A stretch of DNA of 32,000 nucleotides from positions 1-32,000 of the forward strand of contig JBAXBK010000023.1 of assembly GCA_037142015.1 (NCBI GenBank). The letters are read 5' to 3'. Positions 3,521-27,743 of the stretch are shown here, one piece after another. The stretch is from Nitrospira sp. (GTDB taxonomy: Bacteria > Nitrospirota > Nitrospiria > Nitrospirales > Nitrospiraceae). A program made the position numbers and the translations under genes. Each line of letters opens with the position of its first letter. Position 1 is the first letter of the stretch. The notes beneath the pieces are model-generated. The model was not told the origin of the DNA. It did no database searches and saw only the letters and a program-made list of their open reading frames with translations.

Positions 3521-3542
3521 TGGTGCCGAAGGCGGGATTTGA
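3521..3542. repeat. tRNA-distal att core (duplicate of the tRNA-Leu 3' end)
   Basis: 22/22 identity with 27722-27743. Identity stops on both sides of the repeat. Confidence 0.8.
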
Positions 3543-3671
3543 TTTGAGGCGATTTTCATGACTTCAATAATATCAGTCAGTTTAGATATTTTGAAATGTT
3601 TTTACAACGACTTAGACCGTTTCCAGATATGTGATTGAGTATGACCGAGAATGATGGGATTTGCTCTGCTA

Positions 3672-3691
3672 TACGACCGTTTTACGACCGT
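3672..3691 (+). repeat. Tandem 9-bp repeat TACGACCGT x2 (11-bp period), candidate arm-type integrase site
   Basis: Copies at 3672-3680 and 3683-3691, 130 bp inside the distal att core. The same motif pair occurs at 27650-27669. Confidence 0.55.
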
Positions 3692-4096
3692 GACCATCTA
3701 TGGAGGCAGGAGTTCAGCAAAAGGAGTAGGACTGGAACTTCCAACGGAGCAGTTCAGGTCATAGTTCTAGATGCTCGTCAATATCTCCGCCCGCCTGAAC
3801 GTCTATTAAGCCCTGAGAGGGTTTTATGGACAGAGGTGACAGCCAATGGTCACTCTCGCCATCCCACACACGCCTGAGAGCCTTGACACCTTCCTACGGT
3901 CGGCCTAGCTATCCTTGTCACCTGACTAGCCCTTCGACCCTGAGCTGGTCGCCTTTCTAGCCAGAGTCCCCGCGTGCTGTACCTCCACCGGCCTGCAGTG
4001 ACCTTGACAAATGATTCCATTCTGGCCTTTCCGCCTTGGAAGTTATGATGATTTCTCACAGGGAAAGGATTATCCTTTGGAAGCAGTAGTCTTTAG

Positions 4097-4322
4097 CCCG
4101 CACTATTCATGAAAGTTCGTCGCGAAATGGCGGAGTGGCGCGCGACAAGCAAGACGTGCGCGACAGTCGCGACTCGAAGTTCCGGGTTCGAAGTTCCAAA
4201 ACCACGAACTTCGCAGCTCGAACCGTCGTCCGTCTCACCTGTCGCGCTTTCGCGCCAGTCTCGTCCGTCTCGCTTGAGTCAGGCATCCGCGCTTGCAGCA
4301 GGACCTTCATGAATAATGCGGG
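4097..4322. mobile_element. MITE (226 bp) with IS1380-type termini
   Basis: The termini are CCCGCACTATTCATGAA (4097-) and TTCATGAATAATGCGGG (-4322), matching at 16/17 as an inverted repeat. They match the ends of the IS at 13197-14896. The element is flanked by a perfect 4-bp duplication, TTAG (4093-4096 and 4323-4326). Confidence 0.7.
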
Positions 4323-4554
4323 TTAGAGCAATTTGTCCTGTGGAAAAAGGGTATGTTTGGGTAGAAGAATCGGCGATGTCTGAGAAGACTGGCTGCACGA
4401 AAGATGGGAAACGAGTGACATTGTCAGAAAGGAAGGAAGCTGTAAATTCCATTTGGTAGCGGGCAGACTCCCCGCAATCATCCGTAGCAATCACACCTTA
4501 TCCCCCCCATTGTGTTATAGACGGTTTCCGGGGTCCGCGCGATACTAAGCCATC

Positions 4555-5949
4555 ATGCGTACCATCTCCTTCATAATTCTCCTGTCCGCACTCGTTCTCC
4601 CCACCGTTGCCTTTGCGGAGATGCAGACTATCAGCGCCACGCACACCTACATCCTGGGCGACCATGACAGCAAAGACGACGCCCGCCAGCGCTGCGACCT
4701 TGAAGCCAAACGCAAGATACTAGAGCAAGCGGGTGTCTATATCGAAAGCGTGTCCGAAGTGAAGAACCTCGATCTCACCAAAGACAAGATCACCTCGTTT
4801 GCCGCAGCCGTCATGCAAGTAAAAGACACCAAGGAAGATGTCAGCTTCAAGCAGGGGCACATGACACTGACGCTCAAGCTCACCGCACAGGTGGATCTTG
4901 TAGAGGTGCGTAAACAACTTGCCGCTCGCCAGCTTGATGCGGGTGTGCGGGATACTGTGGCTGCTCAGCAAGACCGACTAAAGTACCTCGAAGCACGGCT
5001 TGAAGCCATGCAGCAACAGGAAAAGCAAGCACCTGGGCAGAGGACCATCTCTACAGCGAATGTCATCTTTACAGCCGCAGATGTGCAAATGGTGCGTACA
5101 CAAGCAGCCCGAGGCGACAGAGAGGCGCAGGCCATGCTCGGGAACCTGTACCACATGGGAAACGGCGTCCCTCAGGACTATGTCCAAGCGCGGCAGTGGT
5201 ACGAGAGAGCGGCTGCTCAGGGGCATGCAGTGGCGCAGGGCAACCTCGCTGTAATGTATAGGGTCGGACAGGGCGTCCCGCAGGATCATGGGAAGGCGCG
5301 GCAGTGGTACGAGAAAGCCGCTGCTCTGGGGAATGGAGAGGCGCAGGCTCGCCTCGCTGTAATGTATCACATGGGGCAAGGCGGGCCGCAGGACTATGCG
5401 CAAGCCGCGTACTGGTTCGAAAAAGCCGCTATCCAGGGAGGCGTAGAGGCACAAGTCATCATTGGGAATTTGTACGTAGAAGGAAAGGGCGTCTCCCAGG
5501 ACTACGTCAAGGCGCGGCAGTGGTACGAAAAAGCCGCTGCCCAGGGCAACGATACTGCGCAGTATTATCTTGGGTTGTTCTATAACAACGGGGGAGAGGG
5601 GATCCAGCAGGATTACGTCCAAGCAATGCAATGGTCCGAGAAAGCCGCTGCCCAAGGCAACCCGTTTGCGCAGGCCGCTCTTGGGAGTAGATACTACTTT
5701 GGAGGAGATGGCGTCGCGAAGGATTATGTACGCTCTTACCTGTGGTCCAGTCTTGCCGCACGCAATGAGGGAGTGCAACTTCCAGTAGCAGAGGGAGTGC
5801 AAGTTCCATTAGGTTCCGTTATGCAATCAATTCTAGTAAGGCTCGAAGGGACGATGACGCCTCAGCAGCTTCAGGAAGCACGGCAGTTAGTTCGAGACTG
5901 GAGGCCGAAGAAAGAGAACACACGACCTTCCCTATTCAGCGGGTTTTAG
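4555..5949 (+). CDS. Secreted Sel1-like repeat (SLR/TPR-type) protein
   Basis: 464 aa with a signal peptide (ILLSALVLPTVAFA). There are at least 6 tandem Sel1 units of the form G.GV.QDY..A..WYEKAAAQG...AQ..LG.MY. Confidence 0.85.
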   Translation: MRTISFIILLSALVLPTVAFAEMQTISATHTYILGDHDSKDDARQRCDLEAKRKILEQAGVYIESVSEVKNLDLTKDKITSFAAAVMQVKDTKEDVSFKQGHMTLTLKLTAQVDLVEVRKQLAARQLDAGVRDTVAAQQDRLKYLEARLEAMQQQEKQAPGQRTISTANVIFTAADVQMVRTQAARGDREAQAMLGNLYHMGNGVPQDYVQARQWYERAAAQGHAVAQGNLAVMYRVGQGVPQDHGKARQWYEKAAALGNGEAQARLAVMYHMGQGGPQDYAQAAYWFEKAAIQGGVEAQVIIGNLYVEGKGVSQDYVKARQWYEKAAAQGNDTAQYYLGLFYNNGGEGIQQDYVQAMQWSEKAAAQGNPFAQAALGSRYYFGGDGVAKDYVRSYLWSSLAARNEGVQLPVAEGVQVPLGSVMQSILVRLEGTMTPQQLQEARQLVRDWRPKKENTRPSLFSGF

Positions 5950-5996
5950 CAGAAAAACTGCAAGAGCTCCATACAAAAGCAGCCCAAGGTGACGAG

Positions 5997-6230: not shown

Positions 6231-6425
6231 GTAAGGTCCGCCAGTTGCCACTCGCCGCAGTCTCTTCGCAATCATCCGTAGCGATCCTCTCCCCCCTTTC
6301 CCAGTTTGACAGGTGTTAGATAGGTGTTAGCGGGGTGAGCAAATCAGGCTAAATGGAGGCAGAGAGCGACAAAGAGAAACAAAGAGGCGAGAGGCTGAAC
6401 ACCGCATGATGCCGCAAGCTGCTAG

Positions 6426-6615
6426 CCCGCACTATTTACGAGACTTCGTGACGAAACCGCCGAGACGCCACGCGAGACAGGCGCGCGGAGCTGAGAGGGA
6501 GGAAGGCATACTTAACACAGTATGTTGACCGACCGAGCGGCGAGCCCGCCTGCCGTTAGGCTTGTCGCAGCGGCGTATCGGCGGCTGTAGTAGAAGTCTT
6601 CGTGAATGGTGCGGG
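6426..6615. mobile_element. Second MITE copy (190 bp) of the same IS1380-type family
   Basis: The left end CCCGCACTATTTACGAGACTTCGTGACGAAA (6426-) parallels MITE 1. The right end, reverse-complemented, reads CCCGCACCATTCACGAAGACTTC (-6615). The flanks are CTAG and CTGG. Confidence 0.6.
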
Positions 6616-6652
6616 CTGGCATATCGAGCAGGAGCGAGTCGTCACGCTGCAT
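6616..6652 (-). pseudogene. Truncated HEPN (DUF86-like) toxin gene stub
   Basis: An ATG at 6652 overlaps the MNT stop by 11 nt, as is usual for MNT-HEPN pairs. It reads [12 protein letters not shown] and then runs straight into the MITE terminus. No HEPN-like continuation is recognisable left of the MITE. Confidence 0.4.
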
Positions 6653-6959
6653 ACACAGCTTCCATGTGGGAGAGAATGTGCTTGCGCCTGATGTAGTTGC
6701 GGCTTTCCTCCACCAATCGTTTTTCAACCAGATCAACCACTCGTCCAAACAACGTCTCTAACTCCTCCTTCATATCCAGCAGATGGTCAACCCCCCAGTC
6801 TGAATCGGGGCTGAACGTCACCAGCACATCCACATCGCTGTCCGGACGGAAATCCTCTCGGAGCACGGAGCCGAAGAGAGCCAGCTCGGTAATCTTCCAT
6901 TTTTGGCAGAAGGCCGTAATCCTGTCTTTCGGCACCATAATCTGAATCTTACCGCTCAT
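6642..6959 (-). CDS. Minimal nucleotidyltransferase (MNT-type antitoxin, NTP_transf_2 fold)
   Basis: 105 aa carrying [20 protein letters not shown], which matches the GS-x9-11-DxD nucleotidyltransferase signature. Confidence 0.8.
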
Positions 6960-7626: not shown

Positions 7627-7804
7627 GGAACAGGCCTGCCTAACTTACAAGGGAACATTGCCCGAGAGTTTCCACCCGCTTAGCGAAAAGTTCCAGACAG
7701 TGCCGTGCCTTCAAAGTCGCCACATTGGTATGTGACGGGACAACACACCGGAAAGCGACGGGAGGGGCGAATCAAGAAGGGCATGGCAGCCTCGCCCGCA
7801 CCCT

Positions 7805-8179: not shown

Positions 8180-9784
8180 ATGTCGCATCGTCGCAAGAAA
8201 TTCCTGTCGGTCGGGCTAGCAGGAGTGCTGTGTTCTACAGCGCTGCTCGGCTTCACTGCGGCACACGCTGCTGGAGAAAACAATCTGCACCTTCCCGGCA
8301 TGAAGGACCGGCCTCATTCTCCGGAGAATTCTTTTACGCGCATGTTTTCTGAATTGCCGCCCTTCGCTCCGCCGACCGATGCCGCGCGTGATCAGGCTAA
8401 GAAGCTGGGTGAAAAAGGGGGCCTCATCGACGCGTTGGATATCCTCAGCGATCCCATCAAGTCGATCACGGAGCCCCTGGTGTTCAGTCCGAATAATCCC
8501 GATAATCCCAACATGACGGCCGGCGTGACCTTCTTCGGTCAGTTCCTCGACCACGATGTGACGCTCGATCCAAGATCTCCGTTGCTCGAACGGAGCAACC
8601 CCCAAAAGACGACGAACTTTCGCACCGCGGCGTTCGATCTGGACAGCGTGTATGGTGATGGGCCCGAAGCATCCCCGCTGTTGTATGACCTGAGTTCCGG
8701 CGATATCAAGCTGCGCGTGGAACCCATACCTGGTTCGGCGCAGGTCTCTCGCAAAGGAGCGATCCGGTTCGACCTCCCGCGTGATTCCTACAATCACGCC
8801 ATCCTCGGAGACAGCCGGAACGACGAACACGTGATCCTCGCTCAGTTCCACTTGGCAGTCCTGCGTTTTCACAACGCGGTGATCGACCACTTGCGTAAGG
8901 ATCCCGCGCTTGCCGATCAATCGGCTGAGCGGATCTTCAAGCTGGCCCAACGTCAGGTCCGCTGGCACTATCAGTGGATCATCTTGCACGAATTCCTCCC
9001 GCTGACGATCGGGCAAGAGCGCGTCGATGACATCCTCAATAAGGGGCTCCGCTTCTACGAGGTGGACAAAAAGAATCCGTTGATTCCCATCGAGTTTTCA
9101 GTGTCAGCCTACCGCTTCGGCCATTCGCAAATTCGTCCGAGCTATCGTCTGAACTTCGGCCCCACTGGTGGATCGCCGTTCTTCGCGTTCGTCTTCGACG
9201 ATACCCAGGATCCCAACAATCCGGACCCGCCCGACCTGCGTGGCGGGAAGCGCGCGCCCAGGCGGTTTGTCGACTGGCAAACGTTTTTCAATTTCGGCGA
9301 TGGCAACTTCCGGCCCAACAAGAGGATTGACGGCAAACTTTCCAGCGTGGTGATGTTACTTCCAGGCTCACGTGGGCCTGCTCCTGGTCTGCCGGCCGAT
9401 GGGGTGCAGTCGTTGGCCTCACGCAATCTGATGCGTCACGTCAATTTCGGGATACCGTCCGGCCAGGCAATTGCGCGGAGGATGGGCGTACCGGCATTGA
9501 CCGCCGTTCAGCTGGATGCGCTCACGCCTTTTGGCATGGAGAAGAGCACGCCGCTCTGGTTTTACATTCTGAAGGAGGCGGAGCTCATGGAGAATGGTCT
9601 CCGTTTAGGACCGGTGGGAGGCCGCATCGTCGGTGAGGTGTTTATCGGCTTGCTGAAGGCTGATGACACGTCCTATCTGGCTGCTCAGCCAAACTGGATA
9701 CCGGTACTGCCGTCTGCGACACCCGGCGAGTTTCGTATCACCGATATGCTGACTTTTGCCGGGGTGGTTCCACCGCTGAACTAA
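8180..9784 (+). CDS. Secreted haem peroxidase of the peroxidase-cyclooxygenase ('animal haem peroxidase') superfamily
   Basis: 534 aa with a Sec signal (LAGVLCSTALLGFTAAHA). The distal-His motif FFGQFLDHD and proximal-His motif AYRFGHSQIRP are present. GGGGAGG RBS. Confidence 0.85.
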   Translation: MSHRRKKFLSVGLAGVLCSTALLGFTAAHAAGENNLHLPGMKDRPHSPENSFTRMFSELPPFAPPTDAARDQAKKLGEKGGLIDALDILSDPIKSITEPLVFSPNNPDNPNMTAGVTFFGQFLDHDVTLDPRSPLLERSNPQKTTNFRTAAFDLDSVYGDGPEASPLLYDLSSGDIKLRVEPIPGSAQVSRKGAIRFDLPRDSYNHAILGDSRNDEHVILAQFHLAVLRFHNAVIDHLRKDPALADQSAERIFKLAQRQVRWHYQWIILHEFLPLTIGQERVDDILNKGLRFYEVDKKNPLIPIEFSVSAYRFGHSQIRPSYRLNFGPTGGSPFFAFVFDDTQDPNNPDPPDLRGGKRAPRRFVDWQTFFNFGDGNFRPNKRIDGKLSSVVMLLPGSRGPAPGLPADGVQSLASRNLMRHVNFGIPSGQAIARRMGVPALTAVQLDALTPFGMEKSTPLWFYILKEAELMENGLRLGPVGGRIVGEVFIGLLKADDTSYLAAQPNWIPVLPSATPGEFRITDMLTFAGVVPPLN

Positions 9785-9845: not shown

Positions 9846-10125
9846 ACCACGAAACACATACGTCCGCTAGGCATCCCCTGCCAGTTAGGCTGCAAACCTG
9901 CCGAAGGATGGTCGGACTCGTTCGAAGATCGTTCACATAACAATGGGGTAGCGTTCGACATCCCCCGCGCGATTGATCCTGGCGGGAATCTTATGCAGCC
10001 TACTAAAAGGGGGGGTTGACAATGACCCTCACGCGGGAGCAGCTTTTCGCGTGTTGGATGGGCGTGTCAAGACAAGGGAAAGCCGCGCCACGTCATGGCT
10101 ACGTAACACAACATCCCCGTTCGTA

Positions 10126-11799
10126 ATGGAGACAACCGTGGGCATATCACGACGAGATCTACTCCGCTGGGGAATTGTCATCGGGGGGGCCGCGATGCTC
10201 CCGGACGGCCTGCGTCCCCGTCTGGCTCGCGCCGACGACCTGCCGTCAAGCCCGCACACCGACCCTTTCCTCATGGAACTCAGGGTCGGACAGGGGATCC
10301 CACCCGTTGCGCAGCCGGTGACGCCGTTCAACACCCTGGCGGACCCGGGAATCTGCGTGAACGTGGACGGGTCGACCGCCTTCCATGTGAGTCCCCCGCG
10401 CAAGGTCCCGGCCAACACCGAGTTCTTCCTCATCCACGAAAGACCCCTGTCGCACTCGTTCTCCCCCCAGCTGCCGAAGAACATCCTCTGGGGCTATGAC
10501 GGCATGATCCCCGGGCCCACGATCGTCGCGAAGAACGGGACACCGCAGCTCGTCCGCTTCGTCAACGATTTGCCGATGAACGACCCGGTAGGCATCGGCG
10601 AGCCCATCAGCGCCATTCACCGCCATGGAGGATTTCAGGCGTCACAGGACGACGGATACCCGCTCGATACCTTCTGTACGAAGCAGTCGAGAGATTATTT
10701 TTACCCGAACGTGCCGGCCGATGGCCTTGAGCAGAATCTGCACTCGACGCTCTGGTACCACGATCACGCCATCGACATCACAGGGCCGAACGTCTACCGC
10801 GGACTCTCCGGCTTCTATCCCAACACGAACTACCTCGACACCGGCGACGAAGCGACTGGACTTCAGCTCCCCGCTAACTTTTACAAGGGCGCTCCGGTCG
10901 GACCGTTCGACATCGGGCTGGTCTTCCAGGATCGCCAGTTCAACCGAGAGGGCTACCTCGTCTACAACACATTCGACCATGACGGGTTCATCGGCGACAA
11001 GTTCTGCGTCAATGGCCTGATCCAGCCGTATCTCAGGGTGCAACGGCGCAAGTATCGCTTCCGGTTCCTGAACGGCTCGAACGCCCGGGTCTACCAGTTC
11101 TTTCTCAGCACCGGAGACCCGTTCGTCGCCATCGGCACCGACTCCCTCCTCCTCCCCCACCCGGTGACCGTGCAGAGCGTCCGCATCGCTCCCGCCGAAC
11201 GGGTGGATGTGGTGATCGATTTCACGCACTACCAGAATAATTCAGAAGTGTTCCTGGTGAATCGTCTGCAGCAGACCGATGGCCGCAAGCCTAGCGACCT
11301 CGTGTCGCCAGGCACCCCCATCCTCAAGTTCGTCGTAGGCGATAAGCCCGCGTTCGACCCGAGCCAGGTTCCCGCGACACTGCTGCCGGTCACGGAGGGT
11401 CCGGCCCAGTTGCTGCCACAGGTGAAGATCCAGCGCCGGTTCAAGGCTGAACGATCCAACGGGGCGTGGGTGATCAACGGCGAGTTCTTCGACGAGAATC
11501 GCATCAATGCCCGACCGAAGCTCGGCGAGCCGGAGATCTGGATTTTGGAATCGGGCGGCGGTTGGGTGCACCCGTTCCACGTCCACTTAAGCGATTTTTT
11601 CACTCTGTCGCGCGACGGGAAGACGCCTCCGCCGCTGGAGAGAGGCCGAAAGGACACCATCCTGATCGGCGGAGATGTGGCGAGGGAGACGAAAATTCTG
11701 ATCAAGTTCGACGGATTCACGGGCCGCTACGTGTTTCACTGCCACAACATCGAGCACGAAGACATGCGGATGATGGCGCAATTCGAAGTCGTACCATGA
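10126..11799 (+). CDS. Tat-exported multicopper oxidase (CotA/bilirubin-oxidase-like three-domain type)
   Basis: Twin-arginine signal (SRRDLLRWGIVIGGAAML). Copper motifs HRHGG, LWYHDHA, HPFHVHL and HCHNIEHEDMRMM are present. The start is moved to METTVG (10126), just before the Tat signal. Confidence 0.9.
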   Translation: METTVGISRRDLLRWGIVIGGAAMLPDGLRPRLARADDLPSSPHTDPFLMELRVGQGIPPVAQPVTPFNTLADPGICVNVDGSTAFHVSPPRKVPANTEFFLIHERPLSHSFSPQLPKNILWGYDGMIPGPTIVAKNGTPQLVRFVNDLPMNDPVGIGEPISAIHRHGGFQASQDDGYPLDTFCTKQSRDYFYPNVPADGLEQNLHSTLWYHDHAIDITGPNVYRGLSGFYPNTNYLDTGDEATGLQLPANFYKGAPVGPFDIGLVFQDRQFNREGYLVYNTFDHDGFIGDKFCVNGLIQPYLRVQRRKYRFRFLNGSNARVYQFFLSTGDPFVAIGTDSLLLPHPVTVQSVRIAPAERVDVVIDFTHYQNNSEVFLVNRLQQTDGRKPSDLVSPGTPILKFVVGDKPAFDPSQVPATLLPVTEGPAQLLPQVKIQRRFKAERSNGAWVINGEFFDENRINARPKLGEPEIWILESGGGWVHPFHVHLSDFFTLSRDGKTPPPLERGRKDTILIGGDVARETKILIKFDGFTGRYVFHCHNIEHEDMRMMAQFEVVP

Positions 11800-12518
11800 A
11801 TGTCATGTGGCTCGTAACCCTTCTGCTGCTGTTGGCCGGCTCCGGGTGCTCGGAGCGGATCTTCAAGCACACGACTGACGTCTCGCCCTCAGCCGGACCG
11901 CCGAATCGGACGGCCCTCATCCGCGCGGAACATCTTCCCAACATCGAACTCACGACCCACGAAGGCCGGGTGGTGCGCTTTTACGAGGATCTCGTGAAAG
12001 GCCAGGTCGTCGCAATCAACTTCATGTTCACCACCTGCGGCAATACCTGTCCGCTCATCACCGAACACCTGGCCGCGGCACAGAAGGCCCTGGGCGAACG
12101 TATGGGCCATAGGATCACGCTGCTCTCGATCTCCCTTGAGCCGGAGCACGATACTCCGGAGAGGTTGCGGGAATATCGGCAGGTTCGCGGTGTAGGCCCG
12201 GAATGGATCTTCCTCACCGGGCGGCGTGACGATATTGAGTTCCTGCGGCGGCGTCTCGGCGTGTATGACCTGGACCCTGTCATCGACGCCGATCCGTCGC
12301 AACACGCCGGGATCGTGATCCTCGGTAACGAGCCGCAAGGACGTTGGAAGGCGATCTCGGCGCTGTCACACCCGATCCGTATCCGTCAGGCGATGGAGCG
12401 GACCATTCTGCCGACGAGCCAGTGGCCCACAGGGGAAACCGTCGTGAACGAGGTCCCGTCCCAGGACAACGAAGCGGTCGAAACCGCCGACCTGTCCATC
12501 CTGCCGTCGATCAAGTAG
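11796..12518 (+). CDS. SCO1/SenC-family copper chaperone lipoprotein
   Basis: ATGA overlap with the multicopper oxidase stop. Lipobox LLLAGSGC. Thioredoxin-fold CxxxCP motif (FTTCGNTCP) and a downstream conserved His (SQHAGIVILG). Confidence 0.85.
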   Translation: MNVMWLVTLLLLLAGSGCSERIFKHTTDVSPSAGPPNRTALIRAEHLPNIELTTHEGRVVRFYEDLVKGQVVAINFMFTTCGNTCPLITEHLAAAQKALGERMGHRITLLSISLEPEHDTPERLREYRQVRGVGPEWIFLTGRRDDIEFLRRRLGVYDLDPVIDADPSQHAGIVILGNEPQGRWKAISALSHPIRIRQAMERTILPTSQWPTGETVVNEVPSQDNEAVETADLSILPSIK

Positions 12519-19612: not shown

Positions 19613-19613
19613 G

Positions 19614-20111
19614 ATGAAAAGGCTTTTTATTGCTTGTCTATCGATCTGGGCTCTTATCGCCTTACCAGGCTTGGCAGTAGCAGGATCAGACGAAGCCGCA
19701 ATTGCCCGAACAATAATGGAGTCAGGTCGTGCGCTTACGAACCTTCTCCAGACGAAGAACCCTCAGGAAGTGCTCCGCTTCTACACAGAGGACTATTCTT
19801 CGATTTTAGACGGAGTTGTTAACAATCGGAAATTGATGGAAATGTCATTAGGGGTGATTAGCGAAGATGCGAAAGGTGGGTTGTTGGAAACCACAACAAC
19901 AAAGATAAGCAATATTCGAGCTATGGCTTTCACTGGAATGGGGTGGGCTACTTACGATGAGTTCATCGACATCCACTCCCCGGAGGTCGTTTTAGTCAAA
20001 GGAGATCTGAAGTGTACAGGTCTGTTACGAAAAATTGGTTCCGAATGGAAGATTCAGCATGAGCATTGTTCAAGTAGAAGAGATCAATCAGGTAACGCTA
20101 GAACAGAGTAG
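19614..20111 (+). CDS. Secreted NTF2-like (SnoaL/DUF4440-like) protein
   Basis: The start lies 1 nt after the upstream stop, suggesting translational coupling. A signal peptide is present. The C-terminus CTGLLRKIGSEWKIQHEHCS is typical of DUF4440-like folds. Confidence 0.55.
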   Translation: MKRLFIACLSIWALIALPGLAVAGSDEAAIARTIMESGRALTNLLQTKNPQEVLRFYTEDYSSILDGVVNNRKLMEMSLGVISEDAKGGLLETTTTKISNIRAMAFTGMGWATYDEFIDIHSPEVVLVKGDLKCTGLLRKIGSEWKIQHEHCSSRRDQSGNARTE

Positions 20112-20167
20112 AAATCGATGACCCTTCATGTATAGGTCATCCTCCGCCGAGAAAGGACCAATTCATC

Positions 20168-20587
20168 ATGAAGTTTGGAGACCAAGAATCGAAACTGGCC
20201 GATTATTGTTGCAAAGATGAACTTGGGCGAAAGATCTCATGTATTCTGACGGACCGTCGCTTAGTGATTAGCGACAAGAATAGCGAAGAAAACTACCCTC
20301 TCGGTAAAATCACGGTGGTGAGCACTGTATATGGACGGTACTGGTGGGTAATAGTAATAGCAGTGCTTACAGCCTTCACCTGTCTAGCGGATATTGCTTT
20401 CAGGGGAGAGGCAAGCAGCAGTTCGTTTGTCGGTTTTACTTTAGCTGGCATCATGTCCTACTTGTGGTTCATAGGCTATACAAAGTTTAGTATAGGTCAG
20501 ATGGGTGGAAACAAGCGGTATTCAATCTTTGGGAAAGACGAAAAGCTGATGGCGTTCGTGGACGCTGTGAACGAAAAGCTGTCCTAA
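20168..20587 (+). CDS. Hypothetical membrane protein with a PH-like N-terminal segment and two TM helices
   Basis: 139 aa containing LTDRRLVISDKNSEENYPLGKITVV followed by two hydrophobic helices. No firm family assignment. Confidence 0.5.
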   Translation: MKFGDQESKLADYCCKDELGRKISCILTDRRLVISDKNSEENYPLGKITVVSTVYGRYWWVIVIAVLTAFTCLADIAFRGEASSSSFVGFTLAGIMSYLWFIGYTKFSIGQMGGNKRYSIFGKDEKLMAFVDAVNEKLS

Positions 20588-20834: not shown

Positions 20835-21434
20835 TCACCGGGCGGCCACGAGCATGCGCTTAATGTTGAGCATGAGCGCCGCGAAGCGCGCCTGTTCCAC
20901 ACGAAGCACGTCCTCGCCCTCTGGCGTCACCACACCTCCGCGAGTAAAGTCACGCGCCCGATATTCCAACCAGGCACTCTGCACCGCGAGCATTCGGTGA
21001 TAGGTGTTAAACAAAATAGACCGATCGAGGCGTAACGGTCCTATCATCTGATCAAGATCCCGCTGAATGTCTCCAAGATCCTGATAGATCCTGACCCACT
21101 CCTCATGCGTGGTGCGCCCTTCGGCATGGGTTCGATCTGTGCGAAACATAAATTCGGCCCAGAAGGTGTGATCCCCCGCATCGCTTTTCAGCCGTGTGAA
21201 CTCCTCCTGAGTATCGAGCAAAAGGAGTTTCATATCTTGGCTATCGGGGCCAGGGCGGCGAGACTCTCGGTCGGTGATGGTGGGGGTGGCAGGCTCAGCC
21301 TCTGACTGTGTAGCTGTCTGCTGTCTCAGCCTGCGGTACGTACAGTGCCGGAGATGCCCACGAACCGCCTGGGGTGTTTTGAAGGGTTTTTCGCAGTAGT
21401 CACACTCATATCGTTTAGGGGTTATCTTGGCCAT
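20835..21434 (-). CDS. Hypothetical protein with an N-terminal classical C2H2/C2HC-like zinc finger
   Basis: YECDYCEKPFKTPQAVRGHLRHC fits C-x2-C-x12-H-x2-H / H-x3-C. The remainder is unrecognised. Confidence 0.55.
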   Translation of the reverse strand: MAKITPKRYECDYCEKPFKTPQAVRGHLRHCTYRRLRQQTATQSEAEPATPTITDRESRRPGPDSQDMKLLLLDTQEEFTRLKSDAGDHTFWAEFMFRTDRTHAEGRTTHEEWVRIYQDLGDIQRDLDQMIGPLRLDRSILFNTYHRMLAVQSAWLEYRARDFTRGGVVTPEGEDVLRVEQARFAALMLNIKRMLVAAR

Positions 21435-21625
21435 AGATCAGGCGTTGCTCCTGTTTGGGGTTATGTGGTTTGTGCCCCATGAGTGGATATCGCAAAGCGA
21501 CTCACCGCTGGGACAACGGGGCACTCATTGCTGCCGTTTTCACAGGGTGTTGTGCATCTCTGCCTGCTGAGATCATGGAAGGGTCTTTTTTCTTCTCTCT
21601 CGTAGGCACTCACGCGCTCCTCACC

Positions 21626-22201
21626 TCAGCGTGTAACCTGTAATGCCTTGTGGACATAACTCGGACTCGCCCCCACCTGTTTCGCAATCGCACGAATACT
21701 CAACCCCTGTGTTTTGAGATTCATGATTCGTTCCGTGTCCATCTGTAACCCTGGACGCCCAATCTTCTTCCCCAACGCTTTGGCACGTCGCAACCCACCT
21801 TTGATCCGTTCCACGATAATGTTGCGTTCCAACTCTGCCACTGCTGCCACAATCGTAAACATAGCCTTCCCTAGCGGGGAGCTGGTATCGATATTTTCCT
21901 GATAGGAGATAAACTCGATCCCGAGATGCCGCAACTCCTCCAAGGCTGTGATTAAATGCTTGGTGGAGCGTGCAAAGCGATCGAAACGCCAGACCAGCAC
22001 CGCGTCGAACTTCCGTTTGCGGGCATCGGCCATGAGTTCATCGAGAGCTGGCCGTCGTTCCTTGGTGCCGCTGATCCCGGTATCGCAATACTCACGATAG
22101 ATCGTGAAGCCCCGCTGCGTGCAGAAGGCCTGGAGATCGGCCAACTGCATCGCGACGGACTGATCGGCGGTCGAGACTCTACAATAGAGGGCGATCATCA
22201 T
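21626..22201 (-). CDS. Small serine recombinase (resolvase/invertase family)
   Basis: 191 aa with the catalytic N-terminus ALYCRVSTADQ, the block VWRFDRFARS, and a C-terminal HTH (GLSIRAIAKQVGASPSYVHKAL). Confidence 0.9.
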   Translation of the reverse strand: MMIALYCRVSTADQSVAMQLADLQAFCTQRGFTIYREYCDTGISGTKERRPALDELMADARKRKFDAVLVWRFDRFARSTKHLITALEELRHLGIEFISYQENIDTSSPLGKAMFTIVAAVAELERNIIVERIKGGLRRAKALGKKIGRPGLQMDTERIMNLKTQGLSIRAIAKQVGASPSYVHKALQVTR

Positions 22202-22680
22202 CGGGCATGTCGGCGAAACATCTTCTTCATCGTGATGTGTTCCTGGTAGAGTTCAATGAAGTTTTGTTGAATATCCTCCTGACGGACCTCAGACAGGTCG
22301 TCTACGAATTGCTGTTTTCCCTGCGGCCACAATTCGCTGATGCATGACTTTTTATCGCCTTCAATCAAGTGATGATGCGCAACCCAAAACTTGTCCCCTG
22401 AGCGCTTGATCTCCACCCAATAGGTAAAGGCTCTTCCATCGGGTACGGCGATACGGAGCCTCGGATCAACAGGAGGAAAAATGGGAAAATGGTCTGGAGT
22501 GATGTCAACAGAACGTCCATAGCTTCTGAAATCTTTCTGTATTCTCTTGAAAACCGGCAGAACTATACGACTGCCTACTTGATCACACTGTTGCTCAAAT
22601 TTTTCACGATCCTCTAGAGGGATCAAGCGTTCCTGCTCTTCGGGCTCCAATAAGTTGAAAATCTGTTGCTTCAAGTTCAT
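22198..22680 (-). CDS. Hypothetical protein (160 aa) translationally coupled to the serine recombinase
   Basis: GAGGAG RBS before MNLKQQ. Its stop overlaps the recombinase ATG by 4 nt. No motif recognised. Confidence 0.55.
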   Translation of the reverse strand: MNLKQQIFNLLEPEEQERLIPLEDREKFEQQCDQVGSRIVLPVFKRIQKDFRSYGRSVDITPDHFPIFPPVDPRLRIAVPDGRAFTYWVEIKRSGDKFWVAHHHLIEGDKKSCISELWPQGKQQFVDDLSEVRQEDIQQNFIELYQEHITMKKMFRRHAR

Positions 22681-22773
22681 GGTGTACTCCTCTTCACGGG
22701 ATTTCTCGCGTTGAAATATGACTGAAGGAGCGGCCACGCTATATGACCGCTCCCTCAGCATGATGAATGTGGA

Positions 22774-22896
22774 CTACTCCTCTTCTCCTTCCTCTTCGCT
22801 ATCGGAATCCAATGCCTTATCGGAGATATCCTTGACCCCTTCGATGGCATTCTCTAATTCCTCTATGCGCTCTTCCAACTCTCGTTTCGTTGCCAT
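22774..22896 (-). CDS. Small acidic coiled-coil peptide (40 aa)
   Basis: MATKRELEERIEELENAIEGVKDISDKALDSDSEEEGEEE, with a purine-rich RBS (AAGGGGGG). Confidence 0.4.
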   Translation of the reverse strand: MATKRELEERIEELENAIEGVKDISDKALDSDSEEEGEEE

Positions 22897-23017
22897 AAAA
22901 CCACCCCCCTTCTCATTGGATTTCCCTTCTTCAGCACAACGCTGAATCCCTCTCGATCTGCACACCCCCATCGACTCGCATATCTCTTCGTACTCACCGC
23001 TATCAGTTGTTGCTCTC

Positions 23018-23353
23018 TCACACTATTTGTTGAATCACATTCGATTCATGAATCCATCGCAGATGATCTTCATGCCACACCAACACCCATCTCCCTCCCC
23101 TGGTACAATCAACGACATGAACGATTGCAGGACCACACAAATCTTCGCCTGATTTCCACATCACTACCGCGCCTTCGATCAGTTCCCCTGGAGAACCATG
23201 GTCTGGATCACTGAGGACTCGTACCTTTCCACTAGCCTTTTCGAGAACTTTCCATGCTTGTTCATCAGAGAAGTACACCGGGTATCCTGGTACCAGGTGT
23301 ACGGCCCTGTCAGGAAACACAATGCAAAGAGGTCTGAGACCTTCAATCAACAA
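23018..23353 (-). CDS. Hypothetical protein (~105-111 aa, non-ATG start uncertain)
   Basis: The ORF continues downstream of the ATPase gene. The only starts after that gene's stop are TTG (23353/23350) or GTG (23320). Confidence 0.35.
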   Translation of the reverse strand: MLIEGLRPLCIVFPDRAVHLVPGYPVYFSDEQAWKVLEKASGKVRVLSDPDHGSPGELIEGAVVMWKSGEDLCGPAIVHVVDCTRGGRWVLVWHEDHLRWIHESNVIQQIV

Positions 23354-24680
23354 TGATGACTTCCTCCTCCAGTTCGAGATTCGATTCGTCCATACCCTCC
23401 CCCCTAGGATGGGAGTTCGGACGAATCGGTTTTCTAAGGTGATATGTGAATGGGGCACCCTTGTGGCCGCTGCCTTCGCGAACCACCTGCATCCCAAGGA
23501 TATCGATTGCGCGAGAAACATCCTGTTTGCTCAAACCTGTGGACTCGACGATCTCGTGAATTGTGCGGGGGGTCTGATCTAACACCGCGAGGACTTGTTC
23601 AGTTTTTTCTTGTACAGAGACCTGCGCCGGTGAACCCATGGCTTCATATCCGTTTTTCCCATAACGGATTACGAGTTCTTTGGGCGTCTGCGAAAAACGG
23701 GAGACGGATTCCAGCACTCGCTCTTGCGGATCGCCTGGACGGCGTTTCATTGAAATGGCGATATCGACCAGACCGAGAAGGGCGGAGGAACCGCGAATTT
23801 CATCTCCACCTTCCCCACCTGATTTCCGCGTATGCACAAGGCAGAGCCACGCGGCTTTGGTCTGGCGGATCGCATTGAGTAGCATTCGACCGGATCTGAG
23901 CACTTCCGAGGCGTCATTTTCATTCTCCAAATGCCACCATGCGGGTAACGTATCGACCACCACTAACCCGATATCGTGCGCAGCTACGTATTCAACGATA
24001 TCGCGAAGTACGTTCACCGAAAACTCCAGGGGGCCTGTCACTACTTTGATTTGACCTTCTAATCCTTCGACACCCTGCTTTTGAAACCGGCGGATCACAT
24101 CGTCGGAATGCTCTTCAACTGCGAGAACCAGCACCTTGACCTGGCGAACCTTACGCCCGAGGCAGGGTAGTCCACGTGCCACATGTACGATTGCTTCATA
24201 CGCAGCGGTGGTTTTGCCAATCTTTGGCGGACCTGCTTTGGCCGTCAACCGCCTCGGAGCTAAGTAACCGTGGACGAGCCAATCAATTTCCTCTTGAGGC
24301 TTCTGTAGCAATTCGCCAAGATCTTCGGGATTGAAGCCTGAATTCGATTCGTCCAGACTCCCACTCTTAGGGTCTGACTTTGGACGAATCGAAAATGATC
24401 TGGCAGGAGTGTAGCGGGCACCACTTGCCGCGATACTTTTCACCTCGTAATCCGGCAACGGGGGATCACACATTTCTGAGTTGTGTGAAAGAAGAGCTGA
24501 TTCAATTGTCTCTTGGTTGCAACCAAAATGCCGCATGGCCGCACCTAGTTTAAAAAGCGAATCGTTTCTCTGCCCTTCGGGGATACACCCAGACTCTTTT
24601 TGCTGCCGTGTGCCCGGTTGCTCCCGGCTCAAATGCGCGAGAGAGTCCGGAAATTTTGCGAACTCGGTTACATTATCCAT
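23343..24680 (-). CDS. PriCT-like domain + RecA-like (AAA_25/RepA-type) ATPase + C-terminal wHTH; replication helicase-like partner of Prim-Pol
   Basis: IPEGQRNDSLFKLGAAMRHFG...CDPPLPDYEVKSIAAS is PriCT-like. Walker A is GPPKIGKT and the Walker B-like block is LVVVDTL. The C-terminus carries an HTH (IHEIVESTGLSKQDVSRAI). The start is taken at MDNVTEF (24680). Confidence 0.75.
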   Translation of the reverse strand: MDNVTEFAKFPDSLAHLSREQPGTRQQKESGCIPEGQRNDSLFKLGAAMRHFGCNQETIESALLSHNSEMCDPPLPDYEVKSIAASGARYTPARSFSIRPKSDPKSGSLDESNSGFNPEDLGELLQKPQEEIDWLVHGYLAPRRLTAKAGPPKIGKTTAAYEAIVHVARGLPCLGRKVRQVKVLVLAVEEHSDDVIRRFQKQGVEGLEGQIKVVTGPLEFSVNVLRDIVEYVAAHDIGLVVVDTLPAWWHLENENDASEVLRSGRMLLNAIRQTKAAWLCLVHTRKSGGEGGDEIRGSSALLGLVDIAISMKRRPGDPQERVLESVSRFSQTPKELVIRYGKNGYEAMGSPAQVSVQEKTEQVLAVLDQTPRTIHEIVESTGLSKQDVSRAIDILGMQVVREGSGHKGAPFTYHLRKPIRPNSHPRGEGMDESNLELEEEVIIVD

Positions 24681-25171
24681 TCGTACTCTCCTGCAACATG
24701 CTTGGATGGTGGGGCTACGACATAGCCTCCCTCGCCTTTCAGATCGAGGCCAGGTTGCATACCGATGCGATTCTTCACCGGGTAGCCAGGGTGGAGAAAG
24801 TACAGATGCCGACCCCGTCGCGTCTTGACCTCGAAGGTCACCGGCAAGTTCAGGCTCTTGACGTTTTCTTCGCCATCCGGGCCATCGATATCCAGAACCA
24901 CAATCCCCGATGCGGCTCCAGTGACGATTCCGACGTTGCTGTTTGGCCATTGTTTCCACCACGAACGAATGGTCGCCCGGTCGCATGAAGCGTAGTCCTG
25001 CCACATATTGAGTCGCGGATGTTTTCCAGGACTTTTGCATTCAGAGTTCCCGCAAGTACAGCGACCATCCTTAGTCATCCCGTGGAGGGGATGGACACGC
25101 CATCCCATGTCGCCATAGACGAGGGCTGCGGCAAGGCACTCAGAGCCTTTTTTAGTTTTCAGTACTGGCAT
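24668..25171 (-). CDS. Bifunctional DNA primase/polymerase (Prim-Pol) N-terminal domain protein
   Basis: GWRVHPL...CTCGNSECKSPGKHPR...NVGIVTG..SGIVVLDIDG...TRRGRHLYF...GLDLKGEGGYVVAPPS matches the Prim-Pol signature. AGAGGA RBS. Confidence 0.85.
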   Translation of the reverse strand: MPVLKTKKGSECLAAALVYGDMGWRVHPLHGMTKDGRCTCGNSECKSPGKHPRLNMWQDYASCDRATIRSWWKQWPNSNVGIVTGAASGIVVLDIDGPDGEENVKSLNLPVTFEVKTRRGRHLYFLHPGYPVKNRIGMQPGLDLKGEGGYVVAPPSKHVAGEYEWIM

Positions 25172-25324
25172 GTGTTCCTCTTTGCTTGATTTCAGTTAAA
25201 GGGCTTCCGGTCTTCATTCGTATGAACGGAAAACGAATGGCTGAAGAATCGTTGTCCTCAAGAACGAGAAATCCGCCTTTAAGCATTCGAGCAACTGCCG
25301 TACCACTTTGTGATTCGCATGACT

Positions 25325-25555
25325 TCAAGCCCTCTCGTGTGCACCCTTCAAGGCTGGCGTGTAGTTCTCGTGAGTCAACTTCTCTAGATCTGACTCGCGA
25401 ATCCTGACGGCTCTTCGCCCAACGCGCACATACGCGAGCCGACGTTCGAAAATCCATTTGCGGACTGTGCAGGGCTGCAACCTCAGGCGGTCCGCGGCCT
25501 CTGGCACCGTCAAGAGCCGCTCTTCAAATTGACCTTTTCGATTCTGAATCGTCAT
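25325..25555 (-). CDS. Excisionase/AlpA-type HTH DNA-binding protein (76 aa)
   Basis: LLTVPEAADRLRLQPCTVRKWIFERRLAYVRVGRRAVRIRESDLEKL is the excisionase-family HTH pattern. It is the first gene of the minus-strand replication operon. Confidence 0.75.
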   Translation of the reverse strand: MTIQNRKGQFEERLLTVPEAADRLRLQPCTVRKWIFERRLAYVRVGRRAVRIRESDLEKLTHENYTPALKGAHERA

Positions 25556-25679
25556 GCTCCCAGGATACAGAAGCGCACATCGGCAGTCTACGCTCATAGG
25601 TAAATCATCTGTAGTGACACTAATAGACACTTGATAATTAGAAATACGTTGTGCTATATGTCCGTCACACTCAATCACA

Positions 25680-26495
25680 ATGGGGAGGCCGATGCGAACG
25701 TCCGCAACTCATTTGAACGCAGGATTTCTAGAACGATGGCGTGGGCCGAGCCTTGCCGAGAGGACCTCACAGTTGAAGTGGGTCTTGGCCTTTGCTCAAC
25801 AGGACATAGGGGGATTAGAAGAATCTGAATGGAAGGATCTTGAGGAAGGGCTTCAGCGCTTTTGTGGTGCGTGTGCCGCCTTCTCCCCTATTCAAGTGTG
25901 GAAGAATTACCCGATCGTCCCCGAGGCAACGTTGTCTAAGAAATGGGAGAAAGGGCGCCTGAAAGTACCGTTGACCAGAGGCGACTTGGAAAAGATGCAC
26001 CGCATGCTCAAGGAGGCGCTTGAGACCTTGTACCCGAAGCAGTTTCCTTCGGCTGAGGAAGATCGTCACCCGAGATGGCTCCTCCCTGTAACGATCAAGA
26101 AGATCGAACTTGTGGGACGTGTGGTCAAGCCTGCAAGGCGGGTCGTAAAGCGATTAGTAGCGGGGACGGTGGTACGTGCACACATCCATCGTCGCTATGA
26201 GGTGGGCTGGCCTGACCTGTTTTGGTTTGCATTCGCAGAGTACATGGAGACCTTTGCCACAGACCTACGCCGGTGTACAGAATGTCTGACCCTTTATGTG
26301 AAACGAAAACGCCAGGAATACTGCTCCAAGACTTGTTCTCAGCGCGTACGAACGCGTCGGTGGAAGGAAAAGGATCCCCTGCATGCAAGTGACAGCCGCC
26401 ATCAAGCCTATGTCAGGTATAAGCGCAAGGAGTTGGGGTCGGACAAAGTGAAACCACAGCGACGTGGGGCAAGGATTCGTAAGATGGGTATATGA
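25680..26495 (+). CDS. Hypothetical protein with a C-terminal CxxC...CxxxC zinc-ribbon (CGNR-like) and a basic tail
   Basis: RRCTECLTLYVKRKRQEYCSKTCSQRVRTRRWKEK. The gene is divergent from the excisionase-type gene and upstream of int. Confidence 0.55.
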   Translation: MGRPMRTSATHLNAGFLERWRGPSLAERTSQLKWVLAFAQQDIGGLEESEWKDLEEGLQRFCGACAAFSPIQVWKNYPIVPEATLSKKWEKGRLKVPLTRGDLEKMHRMLKEALETLYPKQFPSAEEDRHPRWLLPVTIKKIELVGRVVKPARRVVKRLVAGTVVRAHIHRRYEVGWPDLFWFAFAEYMETFATDLRRCTECLTLYVKRKRQEYCSKTCSQRVRTRRWKEKDPLHASDSRHQAYVRYKRKELGSDKVKPQRRGARIRKMGI

Positions 26496-26539
26496 CGACA
26501 TGGCTGATCTAACTAGCCTGAATGGAAGGACACTGGCAC

Positions 26540-27709
26540 ATGGCCATCAAGAAAACAAAAACAGGATATCAAATTCGTTGGTACAAGGCTGATGGCGGGG
26601 AAACGAAGAGAACCTATCGAGGCATCAGCCGAATTGAAGCTGAACACAAGGAACGGGAGATTCTGCACAAGCGTGACTATGGGGAAACCACGCCGAACCC
26701 TCGGCACGCCCCAACGCTGGATCAGGTTACCCAAGAGTGGATCGAGCAACACCGACCGGAGTGGAAGCTTTCCACGTTGGCTCAGTATCAAAACGTCATC
26801 GCCACGCATTTGAAGCCGACCTTCGGCACAGAGCGAGTCAGCCAGATCACCGGGCAGCGCGCCCTAGATCTCAGAACAAAGTTATACGATGCAGGGCTCT
26901 CGGCTCGTCGAATCAACCTCATCCTGCTCGTGCTGAAGATGATCCAGAAGGCTGCTCGGTACCCCTTGGTCGGCGTTAAGATGCTCCGCGAGGAAAAGAC
27001 GGAAGTAGACCCACTCGCCTCGGATGAAGTCGAGGCCATGCTCGCGAAGTGTCCGGCCTGGTGGCGGCCATTCTTTACGGTGTCGTTCTGGTCTGGCGCC
27101 CGGCCTGGCGAGTTGGCAGCGCTCAAGTGGGGAAACGTGGACTGGCGGATCAATAAGTTTCGTATTCTTGCCCGGCGGTATCGGGGCGATGAATCCACCC
27201 CAAAGACTCCGAACAGCACTCGCGAAGTAGATATGCTGCTGCCGGTCATTGACGCGTTAAAGGCTCAACGCGCCCAGCAAGCCGCCATGCGATTGAAGCG
27301 AGGGGAGGGGAAGCCGGAGGCGGGGAAAGATTATGTGTTCACCGGGCCAGAGGGTGGATTCCTGAACCTGAACTTCTTGAGAGAGAAAATCTGGTATCCG
27401 ACGCTGGACAGGGCCAAGCTACGCCGACGGACCTTTTATCAAACGCGCCACACCTTCGCGAGCAACGCGCTGGCTGCTGGCGAGAATCCGAAATGGGTGG
27501 CGGATATGCTCGGCCATAAGTCTACGCAAATCCTGTTCGACGTGTATGAGAAGTTTATTCCGAGGCGGACCCGGATGGATGGAAGCGCGCTCGTGGCTCG
27601 GATGAAGGAGGAGTCTGGACAACACACTGAGCCGATGTCGGTTCTGCAATACGACCCAAATACGACCGTTTCGCAACCTGCCCCATCCACCGGCTCAGTA
27701 TCTCAATAA
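26540..27709 (+). CDS. int: Tyrosine-type site-specific integrase
   Basis: N-terminal arm-binding-like MAIKKTKTGYQIRWY. The catalytic region includes RPGELAALKW, RHTFASNALAAGENPKWVADMLGHKS and FDVYEKF. The gene ends 12 bp from the tRNA 3' end. Confidence 0.9.
   Translation: MAIKKTKTGYQIRWYKADGGETKRTYRGISRIEAEHKEREILHKRDYGETTPNPRHAPTLDQVTQEWIEQHRPEWKLSTLAQYQNVIATHLKPTFGTERVSQITGQRALDLRTKLYDAGLSARRINLILLVLKMIQKAARYPLVGVKMLREEKTEVDPLASDEVEAMLAKCPAWWRPFFTVSFWSGARPGELAALKWGNVDWRINKFRILARRYRGDESTPKTPNSTREVDMLLPVIDALKAQRAQQAAMRLKRGEGKPEAGKDYVFTGPEGGFLNLNFLREKIWYPTLDRAKLRRRTFYQTRHTFASNALAAGENPKWVADMLGHKSTQILFDVYEKFIPRRTRMDGSALVARMKEESGQHTEPMSVLQYDPNTTVSQPAPSTGSVSQ
27650..27669 (+). repeat. Tandem TACGACCCA / TACGACCGT (11-bp period), candidate arm-type integrase site
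   Basis: Copies at 27650-27658 and 27661-27669, 53 bp inside the tRNA-proximal att core. Motif and orientation match 3672-3691. Confidence 0.55.
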
Positions 27710-27721
27710 CTTAGAGCGATT

Positions 27722-27743
27722 TGGTGCCGAAGGCGGGATTTGA
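27722..27743. repeat. tRNA-proximal att core
   Basis: Identical to 3521-3542. It corresponds to the T-loop through CCA of tRNA-Leu. Confidence 0.8.

Follow-up and report, generated by a model that had tools for sequence, protein, structure and literature searches.

We analysed a window of 32,000 nucleotides (positions 1-32000 of contig C23, which is 49.6 kb long) from a comammox-type Nitrospira metagenome-assembled genome (MAG), a 3.5-Mb assembly of 142 contigs that is 99% complete and derives from freshwater or lake metagenomes. Positions 3521-27743 are occupied by a 24.2-kb segment that reaches into the end of a leucine tRNA gene of this freshwater, ammonia-oxidising Nitrospira-type bacterium. 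A tyrosine integrase gene lies beside the tRNA gene, followed inward by a compact set of replication and recombination genes and then by a longer stretch of mixed cargo (Table 1). The flanking genes are amoC, a gene for a NapC/NirT-type tetrahaem cytochrome, a gene for a MerR+B12 (CarH-like) regulator (990-2119), glyA and nrdR. As described below, the segment is very likely a genomic island of a recurring Nitrospira-type family, integrated by its own tyrosine integrase in the 3' 22 bp of tRNA-Leu(CAG).

The 22-mer at the 3' end of the tRNA gene, TGGTGCCGAAGGCGGGATTTGA, was present in two exact copies in the window, at 3521-3542 and 27722-27743, and matches were found in 0/100 shuffles. No further copy was found in the window with up to 3 mismatches allowed. 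In the whole 3.5-Mb assembly this pair comprised all exact copies, and a copy with 1 mismatch belonged to a different tRNA-Leu on contig C15. The integrase gene stops 12 bp ahead of the tRNA 3' end, and its product possesses the catalytic motifs of box I (Arg, in ARPGE), YQTR-H, GHKS and the tyrosine of DVYEKF; no sequence relative was found in the PDB at E <= 0.001. The original prediction, made from the letters alone, had described the perfect repeat as the tRNA 3' end, with the integrase ending 12 bp away and an excisionase-type helix-turn-helix (HTH) protein, a Prim-Pol, a RecA-like ATPase and a serine recombinase following it. All of these features were confirmed (ARAGORN for the tRNA, Pfam for the proteins, and also PHROG for the HTH protein and the recombinase). 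On integration, the tRNA was restored intact at the end next to the integrase (attR), and the 22-bp copy came to lie at the opposite end (attL).

Sister islands in two other genomes, G220 and G260, and on the metagenome contig L088 have this 22-bp core at their borders. The left arm of the island (3543 to approximately 3900) was 86-91% identical in G220:C73, G260:C213 and L088, in each case directly after the core. On L088, the native spacer between the CarH-like gene and the tRNA is joined to the 22 bp and then to a 91%-identical island arm. Therefore, this sister island sits in an unmodified site, exactly at the 22 bp. Comparison of the junctions places the insertion point of the family exactly at the 22 bp of the tRNA, and L088 was decisive for this. 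Among 85 genomes of the genus, the integrase was found in two (E <= 1e-60). The integrase of G220:C136 lies beside the same tRNA and was 95% identical in nucleotides and 96% in amino acids, whereas the adjoining chromosome was just 86.6% identical, which implies recent exchange. Integrase variants at 73-96% identity numbered dozens in metagenomes, and many had 55-62%. Two relatives at 78-87% identity (P0136 and P0137) were on longer contigs that include the chromosomal flank, and their right flank (rplI, glyA and nrdR) is as here; AAA_11 was also called in the P0136 contig. Further, a 56%-identical integrase in G233, of another genus, also lies by tRNA-Leu(CAG). The islands of G220 and the P0136 contig are reduced, without the helicase or with a split resolvase. 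G220 (contigs C73, C136 and C171, corresponding to L073, L047 and L074) holds two full copies of tRNA-Leu(CAG) and three 22-bp cores, an arrangement that indicates islands arrayed in tandem at this tRNA.

We searched 40 relatives for the flanks of the site (left, 1-3520; right, 27700-29400) and aligned the regions retrieved. Both flanks were on one contig in eight genomes, this genome counted. Three of the eight were empty (G018:C14, G019:C46 and G012:C41), confirming that empty tRNA-Leu sites exist in related genomes; here the CarH-like gene is followed by a conserved spacer of ~100 bp and the tRNA 3' end, and the right flank of G018:C14 was 94% identical to the window. The original prediction had expected amoC next to the tRNA at such a site, but in all three the CarH-like gene takes that place. 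The other five carried different insertions, of 2.5 kb (G008), 10.2 kb (G015), 12.7 kb (G017), 14.7 kb (G014) and 25.6 kb (this genome). All that the other inserts had in common with this island was small dispersed repeats and Sel1-type similarity; their integrases were 24-27% identical and were usually accompanied by a 55-bp tRNA repeat. Thus, the tRNA-Leu(CAG) hotspot is used by several integrase lineages. The segment accordingly shows the features of a tRNA-integrated genomic island, namely a direct repeat of the 3' part of the tRNA, an adjacent recombinase, an empty site and a patchy distribution.

The ends of the island also carry candidate arm-type sites. The exact 9-mer TACGACCGT was present in three copies in the window, at 3672, 3683 and 27661. 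When both strands of the 3.5-Mb assembly were scanned, the pattern TACGACC-N4-TACGACC (11-bp period) occurred twice, at 3672 and 27650. Both copies are just inside the island ends and in the same orientation, the attL-side pair ~130 bp beyond the core (~150 bp from the core start) and the attR-side pair ~55 bp inside. In the attL arms of G220:C73, G260 and L088 the pair keeps its distance from the core, and it is also kept in G220:C171, the arm of which is otherwise unrelated, making a total of four sister arms; it was also found at the 3' end of the G220 integrase gene. This conservation, together with the uniqueness of the pattern in the genome, is good comparative evidence for arm-type sites, as originally proposed, to which the integrase would bind. 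A 19-bp similarity between 3630-3648 and 25661-25679 was within the range of chance matches and was not used.

The right 6.9 kb of the island (20835-27709) form a conserved backbone. In four homologue neighbourhoods (L048, L049, L050 and L091) the order is integrase, a protein of 200-270 aa, the HTH_17 protein and (Prim-Pol and) the AAA_25 helicase, then a ~100-aa protein, the small serine recombinase and a homologue of the C2H2 protein. The genes after this module are unrelated among the four neighbourhoods, that is, each carries different cargo. Because the order is shared, we assign both the serine recombinase and the C2H2 protein to the backbone and not to the cargo. The recombinase is 57-80% conserved in L048-L050, is present in L091 and in the P0136 context, and matched the PHROG DNA invertase family (E = 1e-57). 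Homologues of the C2H2 protein were in the same position in L048, L049, L050 and G220, and the HTH_17 gene was in the same position in L048, L049, L091 and G220.

The helicase homologues have the same architecture and were 57-76% identical; relatives were found in Nitrospiraceae and Nitrospira MAGs. As a single-protein query the helicase retrieved no relatives in genome or viral contigs, and an alignment query found them. Prim-Pol and helicase are two overlapping genes here and in close relatives, and the split form was also called in L049 and L050. In more distant relatives, Prim-Pol is fused to the helicase or a DnaB-N domain is present instead, and tblastn placed a frame shift relative to the fused relatives at approximately 24677-24680. 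A 565-aa open reading frame (ORF) spanning 23343-25040 was rejected as a single gene, its first 120 codons being out of frame with the Prim-Pol coding region. The ~105-aa protein downstream had no family match in Pfam or PHROG, and its homologues overlap the helicase stop codon in L048, L049 and L050. The 271-aa protein next to the integrase is probably a regulator of CGNR-like type. It carries the motif CxxC...CSKTCSQR, it gave Atlas feature matches of 0.97 to unnamed clusters with ABATE/zf-CGNR structural leads, and a homologue in L049 was 33% identical; the positional homologue in L091 matched zf-CGNR at E = 0.002, below the cut-off. Two palindromic hairpins of ~50 nt (approximately -26 kcal/mol; 24342-24393 and 23379-23428) bracket the AAA_25 domain within the minus-strand helicase gene. 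The encoded peptide pairs are NSIRP...DESN. The hairpins can also be recognised in L048-L050, and homology to relatives with other N-terminal domains begins exactly at the first hairpin. They could represent a DNA-level signal inside the coding sequence, such as an origin or a module boundary.

Table 1. Features of the island and its borders, in window coordinates.
Feature	Position	Strand	Basis and remarks
amoC segment, outside the island	~2121-3520	+	stands in place of the native CarH-tRNA spacer of ~100 bp
attL core, 22-bp copy of the tRNA-Leu(CAG) 3' end	3521-3542		exact repeat
Left arm (P' arm), conserved	3543-3910		candidate tandem arm-type sites TACGACCGT at 3672-3680 and 3683-3691
Secreted Sel1-repeat protein	4555-5949	+	Pfam Sel1, E = 8e-59; recurs at the hotspot elsewhere
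MNT-type nucleotidyltransferase	6642-6959	-	Pfam NTP_transf_2; PADLOC PDC-S09 (defence-candidate family), E = 2e-23
Haem peroxidase (An_peroxidase)	8180-9784	+	Pfam, E = 1e-26
Twin-arginine translocation (Tat) multicopper oxidase (ORF 9973-11799), then SCO1/SenC protein	9973-12518	+	Pfam Cu-oxidase_2/_3, SCO1-SenC
IS1380-family insertion sequence (IS; transposase 13220-14884)	13197-14896	-	NCBIfam transpos_IS1380, E = 2e-113; GC 64.5%
DUF4238 gene (17212-18411) between 123-bp, 99% inverted repeats	16874-18453	-	Pfam DUF4238, E = 2e-42
Low-GC (46%) block: DUF4344 metallopeptidase, SnoaL-like protein, 139-aa unknown protein	18608-20587	+	Pfam, GC
Zinc-finger protein (C2H2, N-terminal), left limit of the backbone	20835-21434	-	weak Pfam zf-C2H2, below cut-off
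Small serine recombinase, 191 aa, resolvase/invertase type, C-terminal HTH	21626-22201	-	Pfam Resolvase, E = 8e-47
~105-aa protein, directly downstream of the helicase	23018-23340	-	homologues of 104-110 aa
PriCT_1 + AAA_25 helicase (RecA-fold, RepA/DnaB-like), C-terminal winged helix	23343-24680	-	Pfam
Prim-Pol protein, separate, 167 aa	24668-25171	-	PF09250, E = 2e-39
Xis/AlpA-type HTH_17 protein, ~76 aa from an internal Met	25325-25555	-	Pfam, E = 4e-10; PHROG excisionase/regulator
CGNR-like zinc-finger protein, 271 aa, finger C-terminal	25680-26495	+	divergent from xis
Tyrosine integrase, 395 aa	26522-27709	+	Pfam Phage_integrase, Phage_int_SAM_3; PHROG
Candidate P-arm sites in the integrase 3' end, TACGACCCA/TACGACCGT	27650-27669		
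attR core, tRNA 3' 22 nt	27722-27743		ARAGORN and repeat
tRNA-Leu(CAG), intact	27722-27808	-	ARAGORN; sole tRNA called in the window

The cargo left of 20835 is a mosaic with a GC content of 46% to 64.5%, compared with a genome mean of 55.8%. Everything between the repeats had been predicted to be horizontally acquired. This holds for the island as a site-specifically integrated, horizontally distributed unit, but the cargo, judged by its relatives, is not foreign; it is a mosaic, and its genes are common across this genus with 80-90% identity. The region of the haem peroxidase matched most of the 85 genomes of the genus (75-87% identity), and that of the MNT gene was 85-92% identical in many genomes. 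The multicopper oxidase and SCO1 genes (probable SCO1/SenC start at ~11796) were 90% identical in G245:C236, and the DUF4344-SnoaL block was 84% identical in G009:C127. IS1380 has a single copy in the genome, and 80-90% identical copies were found in six other genomes of the genus. The predicted inverted-repeat cassette around the DUF4238 gene is real, and this gene matched PADLOC DUF4238-Pers (E = 3e-7). The island also contains host-type miniature inverted-repeat transposable elements (MITEs). One matches a copy on contig C60 at 99.6% identity, which implies some residence time.

No HEPN partner of the MNT gene was recognisable; directly downstream, where a partner is expected, there is a MITE of ~196 bp (6422-6617) with many copies in the genome. 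The island holds the genome's only full-length copy of the haem peroxidase gene. At the native locus (C13:76233-76833, syntenic with G018:C6), only the 3' ~600 bp are kept. Relocation of the native gene into the island was rejected, since the 3' remnant on C13 persists and is just 85% identical. At least six other genomes of the genus have Sel1-repeat genes within the tRNA-Leu hotspot or directly next to the CarH-like gene (L018, L020, L021, L032, L034, L036, L038 and L074).

The segment left of attL contains an extra copy of amoC (2350-3177; Pfam AmoC) with its own upstream and downstream regions; amoC is multi-copy in this genome, and other copies match the window up to approximately 3377. 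Homology to the empty sites stops at 2119-2120, just past the CarH-like gene. The native spacer is gone at 2120 and also left of attL, and no tRNA-derived repeat was found at 2120. Therefore, the amoC segment lies outside the island and is lineage-specific. On the grounds of this repeat-free break, amoC as part of the island and amoC-tRNA as the pre-insertion site in relatives were both rejected. The junction of amoC and attL is not an assembly error, because the Joint Genome Institute (JGI) metagenome contig L089 is 99.8% identical to the window from 51 to 4223, across the CarH-like gene, amoC, attL and the island arm. Downstream of the cytochrome gene, near window 51-55, L089 has ~830 extra bp (the overlap is 5 bp), which look like a small mobile-element polymorphism. 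A dispersed repeat of ~96 bp that includes CCTCCTACAATACG...GCGAGGCCCCTATGCCCTTCTCGATTCG is located at 15754-15849 and has more than 10 copies in this genome; partial copies are at 7691-7795 and at 3449-3520, the latter a remnant directly abutting attL. A truncated copy also abuts attL in G011, and copies are present inside other islands at the same tRNA hotspot (G003, G013, G015 and G220). G018 holds two CarH-like loci, one beside the intact tRNA of the empty site (C14) and one (C18) beside a 59-bp tRNA fragment; after the fragment comes an island whose integrase is 24% identical. Either the locus was duplicated or the bin mixes two strains (its contamination is 7%).

We propose the following mechanism. 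The integrase would bind the tandem TACGACC sites near attL and attR and, with the HTH_17 protein as the putative excision directionality factor, excise the island to a circle. The circle may then be replicated by the Prim-Pol and the PriCT_1/AAA_25 helicase, and its multimers may be resolved by the small serine recombinase of the backbone. The peroxidase, the multicopper oxidase with SCO1, the candidate defence genes DUF4238 and MNT, the secreted proteins and IS1380 with MITEs are exchangeable cargo from the gene pool of the genus.

Several points weigh against this interpretation. The roles of Xis, Prim-Pol/helicase and resolvase are predicted from family and position only. Neither an origin or iterons nor tandem repeats were detected in the backbone, and a promoter scan there was below chance. 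Left of attL the native spacer is missing, which means that the locus was remodelled before or after integration. The MITE and IS insertions and the same-genus cargo fit long residence. Further, the junction expected after excision (attB, the amoC-side flank joined to the intact tRNA) had 0 matches in JGI metagenome contigs. The last three points also favour an island that is fixed and no longer mobile. It would have integrated in an ancestor of this population and been retained for the cargo alone, with the intact integrase and the repeats as relics. The host-type dispersed repeats inside the island, the identical junction in independent samples of 2018 and 2020 and in the JGI contig, and the reduced sister islands of G220 and the P0136 context point in the same direction. 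However, the repeats are perfect, the genes for the integrase, Xis, Prim-Pol, helicase and resolvase have open reading frames of full length compared with their homologues, and the integrase of G220 implies recent exchange. Loss of mobility is a doubtful explanation.

A phage satellite resembling PICIs (phage-inducible chromosomal islands), P4 or VEIMEs (virion-encapsidated integrative mobile elements), which would be induced by a helper, replicated by the primase-helicase and packaged in helper capsids, is unlikely. The "satellite-like" character assigned to the core in the original prediction is one of layout only: an integrase, an AlpA/Xis-type HTH and a primase/helicase by a tRNA, without virion genes. 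That layout stands, and it is accompanied by candidate defence cargo (DUF4238 and MNT); further, some marine VEIME subgroups have a tyrosine integrase together with a serine recombinase (PMC9618062). Several unannotated backbone proteins could hide a hijacking function, and helicase relatives at 36% identity are located in a phage-type replication module (L066), a likeness that appears to show only a helicase of the phage/plasmid replicative type. On the other hand, no packaging or hijacking gene, resident capsid or terminase, or virome copy was found. No capsid, tail, terminase, relaxase or type IV secretion system (T4SS) match was obtained for 40 window ORFs against Pfam and 10 backbone ORFs against PHROGs, in agreement with the original prediction that capsid, tail, terminase and conjugation genes are not recognisable. 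terS, capsid, capsid-redirecting, ppi/rpp and psu/sid/delta genes and cos-like features were absent here and in the sister islands. None of 10 downstream genes of the sister elements L048 and L049 matched PHROGs, so hidden packaging genes are not seen in the family. HK97 capsid and Terminase_6N were absent from the 99%-complete assembly, and searches of IMG/VR yielded no copy of the att arm and no close integrase. The size of 24 kb and the mostly metabolic or secreted-protein cargo also argue against a satellite.

Published definitions lead to the same assessment. In the SatelliteFinder paper (PMC10085698), a PICI has at least four of five core components, a capsid-morphogenesis gene being among the packaging or hijacking ones, and an integrase, AlpA and primase/replicase alone are classed as Type C, excluded by the authors as possibly another element; by these rules the island, with three components, is of Type C. 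The same source gives seven core components for P4-like satellites (the psu-delta-sid operon, epsilon, alpha-type primase, int and alpA), of which the integrase and the AlpA-like HTH were found here and psu-delta-sid, epsilon and an alpha-type primase were not (Pfam and PHROG). Capsid-forming PICIs encode a capsid, a head-tail adaptor/connector and terL of their own; here there were no capsid, terminase or connector matches, and markers specific to PICI-like elements (PLEs) were not searched for separately.

An integrative mobilisable element (IME), moved by a conjugative element through an unrecognised oriT, is very improbable. An integrase and Xis without transfer genes are also a common IME layout, and small serine recombinases and primases are known from IMEs, but no relaxase, coupling protein or T4SS domain was found in the island ORFs and no VirB4 in the assembly, as would characterise an IME or an integrative conjugative element, and the conserved module is replicative (Prim-Pol and helicase) rather than one for mobilisation. 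Finally, an assembly or binning artefact, in which a piece of a foreign contig was joined to the Nitrospira chromosome via the tRNA or an amoC repeat, has a negligible probability: the MAG is fragmented into 142 contigs from freshwater or lake metagenomes and amoC is multi-copy, but both junctions are within one 49.6-kb contig, L089 matches across the CarH-amoC-attL-arm region, two samples hold 100% of the core words, host-specific MITEs are inside the island, and sister islands occupy the same locus in G220 and metagenome contigs.

The mobile elements of Nitrospira, both comammox and nitrite-oxidising, are little characterised, and genetic manipulation of these bacteria is hard. The element class is ordinary and well documented here, and it is not a new mechanism. 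We have now defined a family of islands that has a precise target of 22 bp, its conserved arm sites, its compact backbone for integration, replication and resolution, and a hotspot with different inserts in different species. This could give nitrifiers a concrete route for exchanging niche genes horizontally (those for haem peroxidase and multicopper oxidase with SCO1, and candidate defence genes) and provides a candidate tool for site-specific integration in Nitrospira. In addition, the context of the neighbouring amoC is corrected to a lineage-specific insertion outside the island. By analogy with the tycheposons, elements of Prochlorococcus (Hackl et al., bioRxiv 10.1101/2020.12.28.424599), we tentatively suggest that the family comprises self-replicating, tRNA-Leu(CAG)-specific "cargo shuttles" of nitrifying Nitrospira that are tycheposon-like in function, although this view with all of its steps is less likely to be right than wrong. 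If it is true, the islands would excise and replicate as circles by means of Prim-Pol and helicase, with resolution by the serine recombinase that they encode. Periplasmic oxidase, secreted-protein and anti-phage genes would be moved between comammox populations without prophages or conjugation, with carriage via phage particles or vesicles, and the genus would have its main flexible-genome hotspot in the tRNA-Leu locus together with the neighbouring amoC copy.

Compared with known systems, the island resembles classical tRNA islands in its tRNA target, 3'-end direct repeat, adjacent integrase, patchy distribution and mosaic cargo, but it has its own conserved module for replication and resolution, which most of them lack. 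P4 uses a tRNA-Leu gene as its integration site, and its alpha protein is a primase/helicase of a different type from Prim-Pol with PriCT_1/AAA_25. The island shares with P4 a tyrosine integrase at a tRNA-Leu gene, an AlpA-like regulator and a primase-helicase for the excised circle; in contrast, psu, delta, sid and epsilon had no Pfam or PHROG match here, and the host is not enterobacterial. The likeness to PICIs and VEIMEs consists of an integrase, an AlpA/Xis HTH and a primase/replicase by a tRNA without virion genes (PMC10085698; Eppley et al., PMC9618062), of accessory and defence cargo, and, in some VEIME subgroups, of both tyrosine and serine recombinases (PMC9618062). The island differs from PICIs in having just the three core components of Type C and no terS, ppi, rpp or capsid-morphogenesis gene. 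Further, it is twice the usual size of PICIs and VEIMEs and showed no sign of encapsidation or of a helper phage.

In layout and behaviour, the closest described analogue appears to be a cargo-carrying tycheposon, and VEIME subgroups with both recombinases come second. The island differs from tycheposons in several respects. Its integrase, on the plus strand, points outward to the tRNA, whereas the tycheposon integrase faces inward by definition; its backbone also holds the CGNR-like zinc-finger and C2H2 proteins; and it belongs to another phylum and another integrase lineage, and the two are likened by layout and not by integrase clade or gene profiles. The island nevertheless has the tycheposon layout of a tyrosine recombinase at a tRNA site, a partial tRNA repeat, a replication module by the integrase, and cargo. 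As in tycheposons, the tyrosine recombinase is at the end of the element beside the tRNA and the repeats are partial tRNAs (10.1101/2020.12.28.424599), a small primase/helicase module is next to the integrase, and a small serine recombinase is among the hallmark genes. Further, the host lacks prophage and conjugation markers (no HK97 capsid, Terminase_6N or VirB4 here), the cargo is niche-adaptive (tycheposons reach 10 kb or more), and the tRNA hotspots hold tandem arrays and remnants, represented here by the array of G220 and by the different inserts in five of the eight genomes.

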